A stretch of 46,991 nucleotides of DNA, taken from an uncultured Gammaproteobacteria bacterium (GTDB lineage Bacteria > Pseudomonadota > Gammaproteobacteria > CAZYCO01). The stretch's first letter is position 1. Each line of letters begins with the position of its first letter. A program made the position numbers and the translations under genes. The notes beneath the pieces are model-generated. The model had not been told where the DNA came from. It did no database searches and was given only the letters and a program-made list of their open reading frames with translations. Of this stretch, positions 5,815 to 38,163 are shown one piece after another. The DNA is taken from NCBI GenBank assembly GCA_964645885.1, contig CAZYCO010000008.1, positions 7,171 to 54,161 of the forward strand, read 5' to 3'.

Positions 5815-6399
5815 TTATTTTTTGTCAGTATGAAGTTGTTGCATTGCGCGAGGCATATCACCTTTTAATAACAAAGGTAATGTCGCATATGCATCTTCGA
5901 TAGCTGTATCAATTTGTTTTCTATCTGAACGCGATGGTGTATGTAATACGTAGTCTAATACTTGTGATCTATCACCAGGATGACCGATACCTATGCGTAA
6001 TCGATAAAAATCATTGGTATTTAAATGTTTGATGGTGTCGCGTAAACCATTATGACCACCGTGACCGCCACCAAATTTAATACGAGCAACACCTGTAGCT
6101 AAATCTAAATCATCATGTGCAACTAAAATTGCTTGAGGAGGAATAGCATAAAAATCTGCAAATTTACGAATAGAAATACCGCTTTTATTCATAAATGTTG
6201 AAGGAAATAACAAACGACAAACATGATTGTCTACTTCAAATGTTGCTATTAAACCTTGGAATTTTTTTTCAAAACGAAGTTCGGCATTAGCGTGATTTGC
6301 AATTGCTTCTATAAACCAAACCCCGGCGTTGTGACGCGTGTTGATATATTCATCACCAGGATTTCCTAAGCCTACAATTAACTGAATGGGTGATGACAC
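5815..6399 (-). CDS. pth: Peptidyl-tRNA hydrolase
   Basis: [22 protein letters not shown] motif. The corrected GTG start (rc 6397-6399) gives 194 aa. The track ORF extending to 6633 reads through a REP element and overlaps rplY, so that extension is spurious. Confidence 0.9.
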
Positions 6400-6430
6400 G
6401 TGTTTTCTCGCTTTAGAAAAGAATCCTTTT

Positions 6431-6471
6431 GGTAGGGTGGGCAAAGAAGCGAAAGCTTCGTGCCCACCTAC
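6431..6471. repeat. Single REP unit (GTAG-headed imperfect palindrome) between rplY and pth
   Basis: Sequence is GGTAGGGTGGGCAAAGAAGCGAAAGCTTCGTGCCCACCTAC. Outer stem is GTAGG(G)TGGGCA/TGCCCACCTAC and inner stem is GAAGC/GCTTC. Confidence 0.7.
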
Positions 6472-6490
6472 AGAGATGACAATACGATTA

Positions 6491-7180
6491 TTATTCTTTT
6501 GATGATTTATTTTCTTCTTCACCAGCAGCAGCTTCGCCTTCAGCACTTTCAGCGCTGGCAGCTTCAACTTCAATTGTTTCAGTTGCAACAGGTTCTTCAA
6601 TAACAATTTTTGGTAAATGGATACTTGAAACAACTAAATCATTACCGTGTGCTAATGCTACTAATTCAACACCTTTTGGAAGTTTTAATTGAGAAATATG
6701 CATGATGTCATCTAATTCCATTTTTGAAACATCAACTTCAATGAACTCTGGTAAATCGCTAGGTAAACATACTACTTCAACGTTACCTAATTGATGAGAA
6801 AGAACACCGCCATTTATTACGCCTGGTGCGGTTTCTTCACCAAGGAAGTGTAATGGAACATGCATATGAATTTTTTCTTTACCAGTGATTCTTAAAAAAT
6901 CCATATGAAGAATACGTGGTTTAACTGGATGGCGTTGAATATCTTTAAGAACAGCTTTTTGTGGTTTGCCATCAATTTCAATGGTTAAGATGTGAGAATA
7001 AAATGCTTCATGTTCTAGTGCATGAGAAACTTTTTTATGATCAAGCAAGATAGATAAAGGTTGTTCTTCACCGCCGTAAAGTACAGCTGGAACTTGATTA
7101 TTTAAACGACGCATGCGGCGGCAAGCAGCTTTACCGTGTTCGTTACGTTTTTCAGCGGTTAAAGTGAATTGGTTTGACAT
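6491..7180 (-). CDS. rplY: 50S ribosomal protein L25 (long Ctc form)
   Basis: N-terminus LTAEKRNEHGKAACRRMRRLNNQVPAVLYGG with an acidic C-terminal tail. 229 aa. Position upstream of pth is conserved. Confidence 0.9.
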   Translation of the reverse strand: MSNQFTLTAEKRNEHGKAACRRMRRLNNQVPAVLYGGEEQPLSILLDHKKVSHALEHEAFYSHILTIEIDGKPQKAVLKDIQRHPVKPRILHMDFLRITGKEKIHMHVPLHFLGEETAPGVINGGVLSHQLGNVEVVCLPSDLPEFIEVDVSKMELDDIMHISQLKLPKGVELVALAHGNDLVVSSIHLPKIVIEEPVATETIEVEAASAESAEGEAAAGEEENKSSKE

Positions 7181-17081: not shown

Positions 17082-18650
17082 ATGATTAGCACTGAAGATT
17101 TAAAATCAGTGCAGGATGCAGAACAACCACAAGGATCAGTTTTAATTTCAAATAATCAAACTGCAAATTATTCATCAAACACTGCGGCTTTAGGTAATCT
17201 CAAATTAAAAAAAGATAATACAAAACAAGTCTTAAAACTTGAGCGCAAAGCTAGTCTCGCAAAAAATCTTTTTCCTGAAGAAAATAAAGAAAATGAAGCA
17301 CCAAATGATAATGTACAATCTACACCACAACGTTCTTCGCGCCGAATAGCAGGCTTGCCCTTAACTGAAGAAGAACAATTTTTATATAATATTAATGCTC
17401 ATGACAAAAAAACACCTATCATTGCGCCACCTATCAAATATCCACATCGTTTTGAAAAAACACCAGCACAATTGAAAGTAGTTCCTAGGCCATATCAAGA
17501 CGAAAGCAAAAAAAAATTAGCTATTCCACAAGAAAAAATAGATAAAGATTTAAAAAATTTAAAAAACTTTAAAGAAGAAAAAGTTCAAATTGAATCGCAA
17601 AAAGTAAACGGTGTACGAATTTGTAAAGATGCGAATGATGTTGTACTGGAAAAATATTTCACAGTTAAATTAACTTGCACTAAATTAACTTTTTTTGCTA
17701 GTCCTCTTCTGCCTACAGACCGTCGTAGACATTTTGGCAATGTAAGATTTGATCAATCCATAATGGACTCGAGAATAAAAAAAATAGAAGAATTAAATAA
17801 AAAATCAAAAACAGATATTAAAACATTGCAAAAAGTTTCTTTAGATAAAATTAATGAGAATGAAGATTATTTGCTATCAATTCAACCCGCACCACAAGTT
17901 GCAGTTAAAGAATTTTTTCGCGTTCCAGTGACTTGGGATGTAATAAAAAGATGGCAGAGGATCGCACAAAGCGGTCGTAAACCTTCTCAATGTGATGTAA
18001 TGGGAATTAGTGCCGGTGAATATGTACAACTTTTCGGTTTTGATGATCCATTAGATTTGCGAGGTAAAAGTAATTGGGAATGGTTACATTTGCTCGCGTT
18101 TTCATTAGGTGGCCCAGATAATAAATATCCACAGTTAGATAAGAATTGGGATGGCGATATTAAAAATTTGCAAGGTCCGCAGTCATGTAGAAATTTAGTT
18201 GCAGGCCCAGTAGGGACCAATACCTGGATGATGATAGGTGAATTCCCACCACATTATTTATTAGTTGATCACAAAGCTAAAGTTGAGAAAGTTTTTATTT
18301 CTGCGCGAGCAGAATTATTTCCAAATACACATATCGCGAAAAAAATTCTTTACACAATTGCTTGGACGCCTAAAGGTTGTACTGAAGAAAAATCAGTTAG
18401 TTTTAAATTTAATCCACTACGTTTTGATGCGCCAACTAAAGCATTAGAAAATTATTTAAGAAAAATTATTGATCGAGAAATGAAACATCAGCATACACAA
18501 AATGATGTCTCTAACACCACAACTCAAAATAAAGTTGCACTCAAACCACAATTTATCGATTTAGATGAAGTTGATGAGTTAAATAACAACAATAATAATC
18601 AAAATAACGATGATGTAACGCCATCTGTATCAATTGCAATAAAACAATAG
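17082..18650 (+). CDS. Orphan 522-aa protein: disordered Lys/Glu/Asn-rich N-terminus and a C-terminal domain with an HNH/His-Me-finger-like motif
   Basis: RBS GAGGA 8 nt upstream. The motif is NWEWLHLLAFSLGG...(insert)...NLQGPQSCRNLVAGPVGTNTWMM at about nt 18072-18233. Poly-Asn acidic tail is DEVDELNNNNNNQNNDDVTPSVSIAIKQ. No family recognised with certainty. Confidence 0.7.
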   Translation: MISTEDLKSVQDAEQPQGSVLISNNQTANYSSNTAALGNLKLKKDNTKQVLKLERKASLAKNLFPEENKENEAPNDNVQSTPQRSSRRIAGLPLTEEEQFLYNINAHDKKTPIIAPPIKYPHRFEKTPAQLKVVPRPYQDESKKKLAIPQEKIDKDLKNLKNFKEEKVQIESQKVNGVRICKDANDVVLEKYFTVKLTCTKLTFFASPLLPTDRRRHFGNVRFDQSIMDSRIKKIEELNKKSKTDIKTLQKVSLDKINENEDYLLSIQPAPQVAVKEFFRVPVTWDVIKRWQRIAQSGRKPSQCDVMGISAGEYVQLFGFDDPLDLRGKSNWEWLHLLAFSLGGPDNKYPQLDKNWDGDIKNLQGPQSCRNLVAGPVGTNTWMMIGEFPPHYLLVDHKAKVEKVFISARAELFPNTHIAKKILYTIAWTPKGCTEEKSVSFKFNPLRFDAPTKALENYLRKIIDREMKHQHTQNDVSNTTTQNKVALKPQFIDLDEVDELNNNNNNQNNDDVTPSVSIAIKQ

Positions 18651-27663: not shown

Positions 27664-27921
27664 TTAATCTCTTACTTCTTTCATAAAATCATTAATCATT
27701 TTTTGTAAACGAATAACATCGGTTTCAATATTTTCAATTACTTGTAACAACAAATTAATATTATCTTGTGAGATGGCGTGTTGTGGTTGTTTGCCATTCA
27801 GTAAATTTTCATAGTTTTGCAAAATTAATGGCAAATAATTTTTGATACCACTTGCACCAAGTTGAATTGATGCAAGTGGTGTACGGATATCATGAACAAA
27901 TTTTTCAATCATCTCATTCAT
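27664..27921 (-). CDS. Stand-alone histidine-kinase DHp (HisKA) domain mini-protein, 85 aa, no ATPase domain
   Basis: H-box EKFVHDIRTPLASIQLGA followed by a second amphipathic helix (NLLLQVIENIETDVIRLQKMINDFMKEV). The ATG lies 2 nt after the ispA stop. The stop is 1 nt from the bioD stop, so there is no room for a CA domain. Confidence 0.6.
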   Translation of the reverse strand: MNEMIEKFVHDIRTPLASIQLGASGIKNYLPLILQNYENLLNGKQPQHAISQDNINLLLQVIENIETDVIRLQKMINDFMKEVRD

Positions 27922-28767: not shown

Positions 28768-29031
28768 TTATTCACTATCATCACTTTGTTCCAATATTTT
28801 GCTATCAAAAGTTTCAAGATTCATGGTTGAGTTTTTGGTTCTTAAAATTTGAATCCGTTGCTCAGCTGCTTGTAACGCTTTTTGGCATTGTTGGGTTAAT
28901 TGAATACCGCGTTCATAGTGCGACAGGGATTGTTCAAGACTTAAATCACCATGCTCCATTTGTTCCACAATTGTGCTTAATTCATTTAGCACTTGCTCGA
29001 AATCAACCGTCGTATTGGTCTTTTTGGTCAC
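28768..29031 (-). CDS. xseB: Exodeoxyribonuclease VII small subunit
   Basis: GTG start 7 nt after GGAGG. FEQVLNELSTIVEQMEHGDLSLEQSLSHYERGIQLTQQCQ is typical of XseB. Confidence 0.9.
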   Translation of the reverse strand: MTKKTNTTVDFEQVLNELSTIVEQMEHGDLSLEQSLSHYERGIQLTQQCQKALQAAEQRIQILRTKNSTMNLETFDSKILEQSDDSE

Positions 29032-29155
29032 TTCAGAACCTCCGTACCTAAAATGGTGGTAGGACGTTATCTGACTGCTTTGGAGCGGTCAATTGATACC
29101 TAGTCCTCAAATTACTTGCAACAGAATGCCTTTATCTTTACATTATTCAAATTAA

Positions 29156-29182
29156 TTTAAATTACATTGGATGTAATTTAAA
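29156..29182 (+). promoter_or_regulatory. Perfect 12-bp inverted repeat with TGG spacer in the leader or promoter of the 142-aa ORF (DNA operator and/or CsrA-type GGA hairpin)
   Basis: TTTAAATTACAT-TGG-ATGTAATTTAAA. As RNA, the core UACAUUGGAUGU is close to the CsrA high-affinity consensus RUACARGGAUGU. It lies 48-74 nt upstream of the ATG at 29230. Confidence 0.5.
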
Positions 29183-29229
29183 ACATTTTAGTAAAAATAC
29201 CCTAATTTTCTATTGCAGGGAGCAAAAAA

Positions 29230-29658
29230 ATGGCTGCTTTAAATACCTCAGATCTTCATATTTTTAAAATTGTTGAAATTAAAAACCCTACCAAGGATAA
29301 ATATTGGGTGGTCATAAAAATTTTAGGTTTGGACGAATTAATAGAAGAAAAACCAATTAATTTAATTGAAGATGATGTTGTCATCCAAGGGTTTTCGCCG
29401 CTAGATGTTAGAACACTTACTCTTTTAGCTTGCGCAGAATGGCATTTCCCCAATCAAACTATAGTTGCTTATGATTTTAGTGAGCCGGATAACGAAACTG
29501 TTTTTCATATTAAAGAACGACACAAATCATATGTTGTCAAAAAGAAATTAAGTGAACTTCATGCCGATCGGCAAACACTTTCGGAATTTGATCCAATTGA
29601 TGCTTACCGAATCGGATATTTTCATGGACTGAATCGTATTACTTTTAATAAAAAATAA
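29230..29658 (+). CDS. Orphan 142-aa protein, no recognised family
   Basis: ORF with a strong RBS (AGGGAG 7 nt upstream). Its stop codon directly abuts the stop of the convergent repressor gene (0-nt gap). Confidence 0.6.
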   Translation: MAALNTSDLHIFKIVEIKNPTKDKYWVVIKILGLDELIEEKPINLIEDDVVIQGFSPLDVRTLTLLACAEWHFPNQTIVAYDFSEPDNETVFHIKERHKSYVVKKKLSELHADRQTLSEFDPIDAYRIGYFHGLNRITFNKK

Positions 29659-30306
29659 TTATTCGATTAAATTAATTCGAGTCTGTACAACTACTCCAAT
29701 GATTCGATCTGTTTCACCTAACGGTACAGGCTCTAATTTATTCAAATATGGATTCAAAGACTGTAAATAGCAGTGTGCGCCATCAAGTAGAATTTGTTTG
29801 AATAATGCTTCTGCTTCATTTTGCAAATGTACAACAACAAAACTTTTATCGCGGATCACTTGTTCAGGATCAACAACTAGTAATGTCCCTTCTGGGAACA
29901 ATGTTTCCATTGCTGAGCCTTTAACACGTAGTGCAAATGCACTTTGACTTACTTTAGCATCAGAAAAAATATTTTGAGTTGCTGCAAAATATGGATTTTG
30001 TTGTTTGAGTTGCGGCCATTCAATTGCTTGTTCCCATGTGAGCAATGGTACAGAAGTTAATTGATGTGTAACGAAACGAGTATGTAATTCTTCAACCGGT
30101 GTTTCGTCTAATAGATCAGCAATAGAAATTGCTAACGCATTTGCAAGTGCAATTAGTGATTTGCGATGCGGCCTACTTGTTGCACCAGATAAAATATGAT
30201 GAACCGTTGGTTGCGGTAATGAAGCAGCACGAGCTAAATCTATTTCAGATAAGTTGCCACGGCACTTCATAAAATAACGCAGTCTGTCGCTGAGTTTATT
30301 TGTCAT
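29659..30306 (-). CDS. Lambda-CI-like HTH repressor with a degenerate (Ser-to-Ala) S24 peptidase domain
   Basis: N-terminal XRE-type HTH (LSEIDLARAASLPQPTVHHILSG). The C-terminal region aligns with the CI/LexA autocleavage domain (SAFALRVKGSAMETLFPEGTLLVVDPEQ...LFKQILLDGAHCYLQSLNP). I preferred the start at MTNKLSDRL (30306, after AGGGGAG); the track start is 30348. Confidence 0.8.
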   Translation of the reverse strand: MTNKLSDRLRYFMKCRGNLSEIDLARAASLPQPTVHHILSGATSRPHRKSLIALANALAISIADLLDETPVEELHTRFVTHQLTSVPLLTWEQAIEWPQLKQQNPYFAATQNIFSDAKVSQSAFALRVKGSAMETLFPEGTLLVVDPEQVIRDKSFVVVHLQNEAEALFKQILLDGAHCYLQSLNPYLNKLEPVPLGETDRIIGVVVQTRINLIE

Positions 30307-30508
30307 TTTTTTCTCATCTCCCCTTATTACTCCAACGATTGAAAACAAATTTTTTTCAATTTAAATTTGACAATTTAAATAATTAAGAATAAAAAAGAAT
30401 AAATGTAATTTTTAAAACGAGAGACTACCACATTTTTTTTTAAGAAGAACAGTGCTTAACACCACATGTTGAAACAAGGTTCGTTTAAATCACAAGGGAG
30501 ATGTATCA

Positions 30509-30688
30509 ATGTTAGTTCTTACACGTAAAGTTAATGAAAAAATCATAATTGGTAACAACCAAGAAATTGTTGCCAAAGTTTTGCGAATTAGAGGAGGGAA
30601 AGTTCGTATTGGTATTGAAGCACCGAAACAAGTACGTGTTTATCGAGAAGAAGTTTTAAAACAAACGCACGGTGGTGAAGCTGAATAA
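30509..30688 (+). CDS. csrA: CsrA/RsmA-family RNA-binding protein, divergent paralogue (59 aa; below the ORF-track length cutoff)
   Basis: My translation is [59 protein letters not shown]. It carries the CsrA signatures MLxLTR(K/R) and VRIGIxAPxxVxVxREE. RBS AAGGGAG is 8 nt upstream. Confidence 0.85.
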
Positions 30689-30711
30689 TTAATTTAATTT
30701 TTCATAATTAT

Positions 30712-30748
30712 TTTGTAGGGTGACGAAAAATAATTTAGTCACCCACAA
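30712..30748. repeat. GTAGGG-headed hairpin between csrA and the cupin gene (REP-like, possible terminator)
   Basis: TTGTAGGGTGAC-gaaaaataattta-GTCACCCACAA. No U-tail follows. Confidence 0.45.
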
Positions 30749-30763
30749 CAATAGGAGAAGTTA

Positions 30764-31258
30764 ATGTTACCAGCGGTAAAAACTTATATTGAAAAATATA
30801 ATTTACAACGTCATCCAGAAGGTGGTTATTTTTCTGAAACTTATCGCTCAGCAGATCATGTTGCACCGAAACACGAGCGTTATCAAAACGAAGAGCGAAC
30901 TGCAGGAACATCAATTTACTACTTACTAGAAGGAAATGACTTTTCAGCATTTCATAAAATCAAATCAGACGAAATTTGGCATTTTTATGATGGTTGTGAT
31001 GTTGAAATTTATGTGATTGATCCAACTGGTAAATTAAACAGTTATTTATTAGGTTGTGGTCTAAATGCTCATTTCCAAGTTGTTATCCCAGCAGGGTATT
31101 GGTTTGCTGCAAAACCAATTGATAGTTTATCGTTTAGTTTTGTTGGTTGTACTGTTCATCCTGGATTTGAATTCAGAGATTTTATATTGGCCGAACAACA
31201 GGTTTTTTTGAGCCAATATCCTCAATATAAAGAACTAATTCTAAAATTTACCCGTTAA
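30764..31258 (+). CDS. Cupin superfamily protein, DUF985 type
   Basis: LQRHPEGGYFSETYRS near the N-terminus and the FHKIKSDEIWHFYDG beta-barrel motifs are typical of DUF985. RBS AGGAG. Confidence 0.8.
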   Translation: MLPAVKTYIEKYNLQRHPEGGYFSETYRSADHVAPKHERYQNEERTAGTSIYYLLEGNDFSAFHKIKSDEIWHFYDGCDVEIYVIDPTGKLNSYLLGCGLNAHFQVVIPAGYWFAAKPIDSLSFSFVGCTVHPGFEFRDFILAEQQVFLSQYPQYKELILKFTR

Positions 31259-31283
31259 TCGCCTCATATTTTCTGATAAATCC

Positions 31284-31318
31284 TTGTTCTCTTACGGAAT
31301 GAGTACTATATTAGTGCT
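31284..31318 (+). promoter_or_regulatory. Candidate promoter of the Rrf2-suf operon with an overlapping imperfect palindrome (possible Rrf2 autoregulatory operator)
   Basis: TTGTTC (31284-31289), a 17-nt spacer, then TATATT (31307-31312). The inverted repeat AGTACTAtaTTAGTGCT (31302-31318, 6 of 8 arm pairs) spans the -10. Confidence 0.35.
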
Positions 31319-37347: not shown

Positions 37348-38163
37348 ATGAGTAATATCGTTATAAACTGGATGGCCGGTTTAATTGCTTTTGGGGTCGC
37401 GTTCTTATTTGCAGTCGTTTTTTATTTGTTTTGTACAAAGAAAAAATTTCTGAATGTCTTAGGAACACTTGTTGTATTTGGGCTTGTTTATTATGCAGCA
37501 GATATATGGACAAAACCTTATTTCGAAGCATGGCGCTATGTACAAGCAGTAAAAAAACTATCAATCGTACAAGCAATCGCAAATTATCAACCAGAACAAT
37601 TTCAAGCATTTAAAAAAGAAGTAACGCAGGTTTTCGTTAATAAAGAAAATCCAGATAAGATCAGTACTTATTTACGACAACTTGGTTTGAATGCGTTTGT
37701 TGCTAGTTTGTCACATGCATCAAATGATTCAATTTATCGCTTCTTGCAATCAACAATTGCATTTTATCAAAAATTAAATGATTCAAATCCTGAACTTGTG
37801 ATTATTATGGAAAATCCAAGTTTAATTCCTGCATCACAAAGTCCTAAAGTGTTGCAAGATCTGATGACTACAACTGAAGGTCAGGATTATGTTAAAGCAA
37901 AAGAAAACCTGATTGAGTCTCAAGTCAAAGATATTAAAAACACAATGACAGATGAACAAATTAAAAGCCAAAGCTCTGCCATTATAAAAGAACTTGGCGA
38001 TAAATATGGCGCTGAAAATGTAACTTTAGTATTTACCAAACCAGGTGATTCAAAGTTAGATAAAAAAGTTGGCGCTCAAATTATCATCGGTTTTTATCAA
38101 AAGATTAAAGATCTTGGTAAAGATAAAGCAGGTGATATTTTTAGATTTACTGCTAAGAAATAA
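37348..38163 (+). CDS. Orphan membrane-anchored protein (two N-terminal TM helices plus a Lys/Gln-rich soluble domain), last gene of the suf transcription unit
   Basis: Starts 16 nt after sufT with RBS AAGGGAAGGG. TM segments are IVINWMAGLIAFGVAFLFAVVFYLF and VLGTLVVFGLVYYAADIW. No family recognised. Followed by a REP hairpin. Confidence 0.6.
   Translation: MSNIVINWMAGLIAFGVAFLFAVVFYLFCTKKKFLNVLGTLVVFGLVYYAADIWTKPYFEAWRYVQAVKKLSIVQAIANYQPEQFQAFKKEVTQVFVNKENPDKISTYLRQLGLNAFVASLSHASNDSIYRFLQSTIAFYQKLNDSNPELVIIMENPSLIPASQSPKVLQDLMTTTEGQDYVKAKENLIESQVKDIKNTMTDEQIKSQSSAIIKELGDKYGAENVTLVFTKPGDSKLDKKVGAQIIIGFYQKIKDLGKDKAGDIFRFTAKK

Follow-up and report, generated by a model that had tools for sequence, protein, structure and literature searches.

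A chromosomal LvrR-type regulator with a probable pseudo-peptidase S24-like domain in an uncultured gammaproteobacterium

The lvrRABC genes and PrpA form a regulatory module of Legionella type IV secretion system (T4SS) islands that precedes T4SS genes on islands, integrative and conjugative elements (ICEs), and plasmids (PMC3864950, PMC3218107, PMC4256840). The lvrR product, also annotated as PrpA or 'phage repressor', has S24- and SOS-regulator-like domains, and lvrC encodes a CsrA homologue (PMC3864950, PMC3218107, PMC4256840). This module governs the excision of at least one Legionella ICE (PMC3864950, PMC4256840). Here we describe a CI-like repressor gene within a 46,991-nucleotide stretch of DNA (hereafter the window) from an uncultured Gammaproteobacteria bacterium (assembly GCA_964645885.1, contig CAZYCO010000008.1, positions 7,171 to 54,161). 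We find that its product is an ordinary LvrR/PrpA-type member, in a chromosomal form without a T4SS. The reading that we favour, at a probability of roughly 70%, is that of an LvrR-type non-cleaving repressor with a pseudo-peptidase S24-like domain, which acts on a divergent csrA-like gene and on itself and is relieved by an input other than autoproteolysis.

Other described regulators share parts of this picture. Lambda CI is the best match to the window protein in both sequence and fold, with a homologous cleavage-site linker, but CI Ser149 is replaced by Ala132 and CI Ala111-Gly112 by Ala94-Ile95. FddR of Francisella is, like the window protein, a chromosomal CI-like regulator with helix-turn-helix (HTH) and S24 domains, found in a gammaproteobacterial lineage of intracellular lifestyle and forming a self-contained unit with a divergent gene; it keeps the Ser-Lys dyad and the Ala-Gly site and is induced by DNA damage (PMC13148647). 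Unlike FddR, the window protein lacks both the Ser and the Ala-Gly and is not expected to respond to DNA damage through RecA. Non-cleaving LexA homologues such as that of Synechocystis sp. PCC 6803 are, like the repressor that we propose here, S24-fold repressors at work outside the SOS response without canonical self-cleavage (PMC7567884, PMC3091678), though they carry a winged-helix LexA-type DNA-binding domain instead of an XRE HTH and belong to another lineage with another regulon.

The locus is laid out as follows.

29659–30306, minus strand: LvrR-type CI-like repressor gene, 215 amino acids, ATG at 30306, stop codon 29661–29659
Repressor residues ~6–67: XRE-type HTH, matched by Pfam HTH_3 and HTH_26
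Between the HTH and the S24-like domain: linker motif W91-x2-A94-x2-W97
Repressor residues ~105–210: S24-like beta domain carrying Ala132 and Lys170
30307–30508: divergent intergenic region between repressor and csrA genes, 202 bp, 26% GC
30509–30688, plus strand: probable CsrA paralogue in an LvrC-like position, 59 amino acids (Pfam CsrA, 1.5e-21), divergent from the repressor gene at a distance of 202 bp
29230–29658, plus strand: orf142, an uncharacterised conserved partner of 142 amino acids, convergent with the repressor gene, with abutting stop codons

A strong Shine-Dalgarno sequence (AAGGGGAGA) lies 7–8 nt ahead of the repressor ATG, and the N-termini of homologues all start at the equivalent of this codon; both observations favour the ATG and make an in-frame upstream TTG at 30348 an unlikely start. 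Pfam identified a Peptidase_S24 domain (PF00717) at residues 105–207 (E 5.1e-17; 62.1 bits against a cut-off of 23.3), and phmmer against PDB sequences aligned residues 113–209 with the lambda CI C-terminal domain (E 1.7e-10, ~33% identity). The LexA equivalog model of NCBIfam (TIGR00498) gave 20.3 bits, below its cut-off of 110.95. An AlphaFold2 (AF2) model built on the family alignment reached a predicted local distance difference test (pLDDT) score of 91.8. Its best Foldseek matches were the lambda repressor 3bdn (E 7e-9) and the CI cleavage fragment 2ho0 (root-mean-square deviation 2.3 Å over 102 columns), with further matches to LexA and UmuD. Pfam, phmmer and the structural comparison thus bear out the CI/LexA architecture and fold that an earlier note on this DNA had proposed from sequence. 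We also considered a defence-system reading and rejected it; the sole PADLOC match was a weak one to the capH HTH.

A profile search over 1.84 billion cluster representatives returned 691 proteins at E<1e-30, and the family counts given here refer to 156 sequences, comprising the best 150-odd of the 691 aligned with the window protein. S24 self-cleavage has three sequence requirements, of which the general-base Lys is present in the window protein and the nucleophile Ser and the Ala-Gly bond are missing. The corresponding codons are listed below.

29911–29913, minus strand: GCA codon of Ala132, in the S24 nucleophile Ser column by alignments to lambda CI and orthologues
30022–30027, minus strand: codons of Ala94-Ile95, at the site of the CI/LexA Ala-Gly scissile bond by profile alignment to the full-length lambda repressor
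29797–29799, minus strand: codon of Lys170, in the S24 general-base column, where 71% of the family has Arg

In the phmmer alignment 'vkGSAM' pairs with 'veGNSM' column for column at high posterior, 'FKQ' pairs with 'FKK', and neither motif has a gap in or near it. CI Ser149 therefore corresponds to Ala132 and CI Lys192 to Lys170. Repressor codons 131–133 read TCA GCA ATG, and pairwise, family and profile alignments agree in placing the Ala codon at the catalytic Ser position, as the earlier note had claimed; its statement that the general-base Lys of FKQ is retained also stands. When a profile of 90 family sequences was set against lambda repressor 3bdn, P-L-L-s-W-e-q-A-a-e-W aligned over P-V-F-S-H-V-Q-A-G-M-F, and Ala94-Ile95 therefore stands in place of Ala111-Gly112. 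Consistent with the reported absence of Ala-Gly from the linker, neither an AG nor a CG dipeptide occurs in residues 80–104.

Orthologues also place the nucleophile column. Those at 51–57% identity read G-S-S-M or D-S-S-M and more distant ones G-D-S-M, D-V-S-M or G-R-S-M; two of the former, at loci L017 and L018, have TCC and TCA, respectively, at the Ala132 codon. Because this Ser precedes the near-invariant Met133 (142 of 156 sequences), its position is the nucleophile column, and the possibility that Ser131 occupies that column finds no support. Conservation of GSAM among orthologues was partial: the 96%-identical relative (locus L016) shares the Ala of the window repressor, and the orthologues at 51–57% identity have Ser. 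The Ala132 codon is also covered, with no differences, by low-depth contigs of one hot-spring metagenome study (two runs). As a separate observation, residue 135, directly after the nucleophile motif, is Thr in the window clade (S-A-M-E-T-L-F-P) and Pro (S-M-E-P-x-F-P) in 148 of the 156 family members, a clade-specific difference.

Degeneracy of these columns extends across the family. The nucleophile column holds Ser in 90 sequences (58%), Ala in 37 (24%), Thr in 20 (13%) and other residues in nine, and the general-base column holds Arg in 111 (71%) and Lys in 39 (25%). Ser and Lys occur together in 22 of the 156 sequences, [AC]-G at the homologous cleavage site in two – both with Arg in the base column – and the full set of Ser, Lys and [Ala/Cys]-Gly in none. 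The same alignment shows canonical A-G, G-D-S-M and F-K motifs in a distant Chthoniobacteraceae outgroup, so the method is able to detect canonical proteins. A rough neighbour-joining tree requires no fewer than 47 state changes in the nucleophile column and 26 in the base column, against four and 11 in the neighbouring columns Pro135 and Met133. Ala also occupies the nucleophile column in Candidatus Paracoxiella cheracis and in uncultured Coxiellaceae copies (G-R-A-M, G-C-A-M).

On the alignment, both former catalytic columns are held to 'small residue' and 'basic residue' and not to Ser and Lys, which is the signature of a structural rather than a catalytic constraint. Catalytic degeneracy is, by the same counts, an old, family-wide state that did not arrive with the chromosomal residence of the window gene. 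The Ser-to-Ala change of the window lineage (TCA or TCC to GCA) looks like drift inside a family long independent of catalysis. The description of the protein as unusual was therefore overstated, since loss of the nucleophile or of the dyad is typical of this large family. Cluster look-ups for the names of family proteins returned almost none. We also observed that two metagenome-assembled genomes (MAGs) encode two paralogous LvrR-type genes a few kb apart: an uncultured Coxiellaceae MAG (L001; 6001–6633 and 9553–10119), in which the nucleophile column is Ala in both copies, and a Legionellales MAG (L008; 3509–3880 and 6001–6552).

Related loci connect the window protein to the Legionella module. 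The divergent arrangement of repressor and csrA genes is kept in L016, L017 (repressor 57% identical) and L018 (51%). In L018 the repressor, P0004, is divergent from a gene for a 186-amino-acid protein, followed by genes for CsrA, TrbC (VirB2-like) and VirB3; no counterpart of the 186-amino-acid gene turned up in the plasmid collection or among Legionella lvrA and lvrB. A Legionella pneumophila conjugative plasmid (L025) has a similar layout, with an XRE regulator (HTH_3 and Peptidase_S24 domains) divergent from genes for a Vir protein, two hypothetical proteins, CsrA and TraT, and onward to TraA. This plasmid regulator scored 153 bits on the family hidden Markov model (HMM) and matched the window protein by BLASTP at E 2e-15 (24% identity). 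Homology, together with the match of the L018 and plasmid layouts to lvrRABC, therefore makes the window protein an LvrR-type family member.

Like the window protein, Legionella LvrR combines HTH_XRE and Peptidase_S24 domains, is divergent from a CsrA paralogue and, on the plasmids, has an orf142-like convergent gene on its 3' side. The catalytic dyad of the plasmid copies is degenerate too (nucleophile and base columns Thr/Arg in the L025 regulator and Met/Arg in a second L. pneumophila copy), and we found no paper stating catalytic degeneracy of named Legionella LvrR members. The two systems differ in what surrounds the regulator: the window has no lvrA or lvrB homologue, VUT gene or T4SS, and its repressor gene sits among chromosomal housekeeping genes whose synteny persists across species-level divergence. 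A tblastn search of the window with three L025 queries, namely the Vir protein and both hypothetical proteins in lvrA/lvrB positions, gave no match at E 1e-3. The W-x2-A-x2-W linker motif, present in the window protein, is not found in the two Legionella plasmid copies. The window cluster of orf142, repressor and csrA looks like the Legionella lvr region minus VUT, lvrA, lvrB and T4SS, fixed next to xseB-ispA.

The window CsrA homologue scored 68.2 bits on the NCBIfam CsrA equivalog, slightly under the cut-off of 73. It is 59% identical to the T4SS-linked CsrA of L018 and 41% identical to the CsrA at the LvrC position of the L. pneumophila plasmid. On these comparisons it is more likely a paralogue than the housekeeping CsrA.

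The genomic surroundings match the earlier description of housekeeping genes without a prophage. Within ~12 kb on each side lie rluD, bamD, a Dps-like ferritin gene, a comF-like gene, bioA, the bio operon, a small HisKA-only open reading frame (ORF), ispA, xseB, a DUF985 cupin gene, iscR, the suf operon, a gene for an EpmA-like synthetase paralogue, and FTR1. No phage, ICE or T4SS gene occurs within this distance. In contrast to lambda CI, the repressor gene is thus without a prophage, and it has no integrase or cro-like partner near it and no tRNA gene anywhere in the window. GC content is flat across the window (~0.34), and the order csrA, repressor, orf142, xseB, ispA is kept in L016 and L017. 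We also considered and rejected a prophage CI-type immunity repressor: there is no prophage around the gene, and the divergent gene is a csrA paralogue, not a cro-like gene or a lytic operon.

That the gene is a domesticated prophage CI, as had been suggested, is accordingly not shown; its identifiable relatives are LvrR/PrpA-type regulators of Legionellales T4SS islands and plasmids. Given these relatives and the divergent CsrA paralogue, the relevant ancestry of the window gene is a T4SS regulatory module and not a prophage. The repressor gene is functional and under strong purifying selection, with a nonsynonymous rate (dN) of 0.026 and a synonymous rate (dS) of 1.35 against the L016 orthologue (omega 0.019).

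Of 23 related loci from metagenomes and genomes, 21 have an orf142 homologue directly 3' of the repressor gene, as scored with an HMM built from locus ORFs; two of the 21, in Coxiellaceae, have only a fragment of 68–72 amino acids on the opposite strand. In the window clade the gene is convergent with the repressor gene. In Coxiellaceae-like, Victivallales and other MAGs it is in tandem on the same strand, with spacing from a 4-nt overlap to a gap of ~30 nt. A VUT-family gene (PF02592, queuosine-precursor-transporter type) adjoins the repressor/orf142 pair in 14 of 25 loci, Victivallales and L. pneumophila plasmids among them, and is absent from the window clade.

orf142 homologues beside the repressor gene: window, L002, L005–L014, L016–L018, L020–L023; fragments in L003 and L004
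VUT gene adjoining the pair: L005–L013 and L021–L025, for example L021 at 6245–6982 and L025 at 4655–5404

Members of the orf142 family have 142–190 amino acids with conserved FSxxD and DAxxIGY motifs, and in most loci the gene is in tandem. Pfam, NCBIfam, PHROGs, PADLOC and PDB sequences yielded nothing for the window orf142, and every protein returned by a database search with the orf142 alignment was a 'hypothetical protein' of a Coxiellaceae, Rickettsiaceae or Victivallales MAG. The AF2 model of orf142 (pLDDT 84) consists of two beta-beta-beta-alpha repeats, for which Foldseek found no significant fold match in PDB or BFVD. On the Legionella plasmids, lvrR is followed by the VUT gene and then by a convergent hypothetical gene of 177–180 amino acids. 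This last gene matched a broader orf142 HMM over its full length at 27–29 bits, against a maximum of 16 in 1000 shuffles.

The 202-bp divergent region presumably holds both promoters and the operator or operators. A repeat search gave the following lead.

30359–30380: candidate operator, a perfect inverted repeat with 9-nt arms (ATTTAAATT-N4-AATTTAAAT) and, at its centre, a TTGACA hexamer on the csrA-side strand

This repeat is identical in L016 and shares no half-site with L017 or L018. It is a candidate for the window and L016 only, and such repeats arise easily by chance at 26% GC. A promoter consensus scan of the region found fewer sites than in shuffles. A separate observation concerns the two leaders: the Shine-Dalgarno-region motif GGGAGATG is present at both divergent genes, at 30315–30322 and 30496–30503, as an inverted-repeat pair. 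CsrA proteins bind GGA-containing leaders, and through the GGGAGATG leaders the paralogue might regulate its own translation as well as that of the repressor.

In the mechanism that we propose, the N-terminal HTH would bind operator DNA in the 202-bp region and would shut down both the csrA-like gene and the repressor's own promoter. The S24-like domain would serve as a dimerisation scaffold, by analogy with CI and LexA. In the AF2 model residues 91–96, with the would-be scissile bond inside, form a short helix (read from the DSSP string of the model; block pLDDT 95). A protease substrate segment would need to be an extended loop; the model suggests that this segment, pinned as a helix by two conserved Trp, may not be presentable as a substrate. 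Relief of repression would then not proceed through RecA-stimulated self-cleavage. Another input would bring it about, most plausibly a partner protein, with the orf142 product as candidate, binding of a ligand, or degradation by a protease of the cell.

Four alternatives bear on this mechanism. Self-cleavage by other means would require Ser131 or another hydroxyl to act with Lys170 on a non-canonical bond such as Ala94-Ile95. The retained Lys170, the adjacent Ser131 and the Ser-Ser-Met plus Lys of the closest orthologues speak for it, but pairwise and profile alignments put Ala, not Ser131, in the nucleophile column without a gap. Column 131 is, moreover, among the more variable ones (at least 71 state changes), with no enrichment of Ser where column 132 is Ala (10 of 37 sequences, against 33 of 90 where it is Ser). 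The P1' residue would be Ile, which is bulky and beta-branched, in a segment modelled as a helix. Substitutions of the Gly are known from LexA and CI genetics to yield non-inducible mutants, one being LexA G85D (PDB 1jhf, also among the structural matches of the repressor model). We regard self-cleavage as very improbable. Inactivation in trans, by a competent S24 paralogue, by ClpXP or Lon, or by an ImmA-type anti-repressor protease, has precedents in the intermolecular cleavage of UmuD and in the ImmR/ImmA pair of ICEBs1, and some genomes do carry two paralogues in one locus (L001, L008). Against it, the window region has neither an ImmA-like metalloprotease gene nor a second S24 gene, and the Ala-Gly site that an S24 enzyme needs in its substrate is absent; we give it little chance. 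That the gene is a nonfunctional remnant of a mobile element is harder still to credit. The missing catalytic residue speaks for it, as does the mobile origin to which the T4SS-linked relatives of the gene point, but the dN/dS ratio of 0.019 at dS 1.35 effectively refutes decay, and the intact ORF with its Shine-Dalgarno sequence, the synteny kept down to relatives at 57% identity and the high-confidence model point the same way.

The remaining alternative keeps the S24-like domain in use as a sensor: its vestigial active-site cleft would bind the orf142 protein or some small molecule, and this binding would switch DNA affinity. Several observations fit: the repressor gene is followed directly by an orf142 homologue, in one of two orientations, at nearly all loci, the tandem spacings look operonic, the adjoining VUT gene hints at a ligand class, and the S/A/T and K/R character of the former catalytic columns is kept, as in a preserved pocket. 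On the other side, orf142 has no recognisable fold or family, the VUT gene is missing from the window clade, and the linkage could equally make orf142 and VUT regulated targets, so that we consider a sensor role doubtful. A broader version, equally tentative, is that the pseudo-S24 repressor and an orf142-family protein, often with a VUT transporter, could form an undescribed two-component switch in which the dead domain senses a partner or metabolite instead of RecA filaments. It would govern CsrA paralogues in Legionellales, Coxiellaceae and other host-associated bacteria and, where carried on mobile elements, also the expression and transfer of the T4SS.

Some observations weigh against the non-cleaving repressor that we prefer. 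The window protein keeps Lys170, and in its nearest orthologues (P0002 to P0004) Ser and Lys are both in place; this subclade may include proteins that are still catalytic at a non-canonical bond, and the loss in the window lineage may be recent. The regulatory target of the repressor is read from gene arrangement alone, and a search of the intergenic regions of the window, L017 and L018 for half-sites of 6–7 nt with spacers of 0–14 found no inverted-repeat half-site common to all three. The L025 regulator is equated with published LvrR by synteny and domain content, with no accession match. The link between orf142 and the hypothetical gene of the Legionella plasmids is weak at the sequence level, and hhalign of the narrower orf142 alignment against that gene was not significant (E 0.11).

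Given the catalytic degeneracy of the LvrR-type family as a whole, an annotation of 'S24 family peptidase' or 'LexA family' in Legionellales-like genomes should not be taken to imply an SOS/RecA response. The lvr module, too, probably answers to some input other than self-cleavage triggered by DNA damage. In the search for that input the best lead is the conserved partner orf142, and the VUT gene so often found beside the pair is a further handle. The family-level point – that LvrR-type proteins are pseudo-peptidases with a conserved uncharacterised partner – may merit a brief follow-up; the single gene is itself of modest interest.

Near-identical DNA to window positions 29000–31300 was found in metagenomes only, with about half of the sampled words present in two runs of the hot-spring study and traces in soil and aquatic runs; no RNA run contained it, and no GTDB species genome came closer than ~37% protein identity. 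The DNA comes from an uncultured bacterium of Legionellales or Coxiellaceae-like affinity. Among the annotated housekeeping genes of the window, two sizeable ORFs had no Pfam match at 1e-5 (17082–18650, plus strand, 522 amino acids; 37348–38163, plus strand, 271 amino acids). The HisKA-only ORF (27664–27921, minus strand, 85 amino acids; Pfam 7.9e-08) lies between bioD and ispA and has a counterpart of 93 amino acids in L016.

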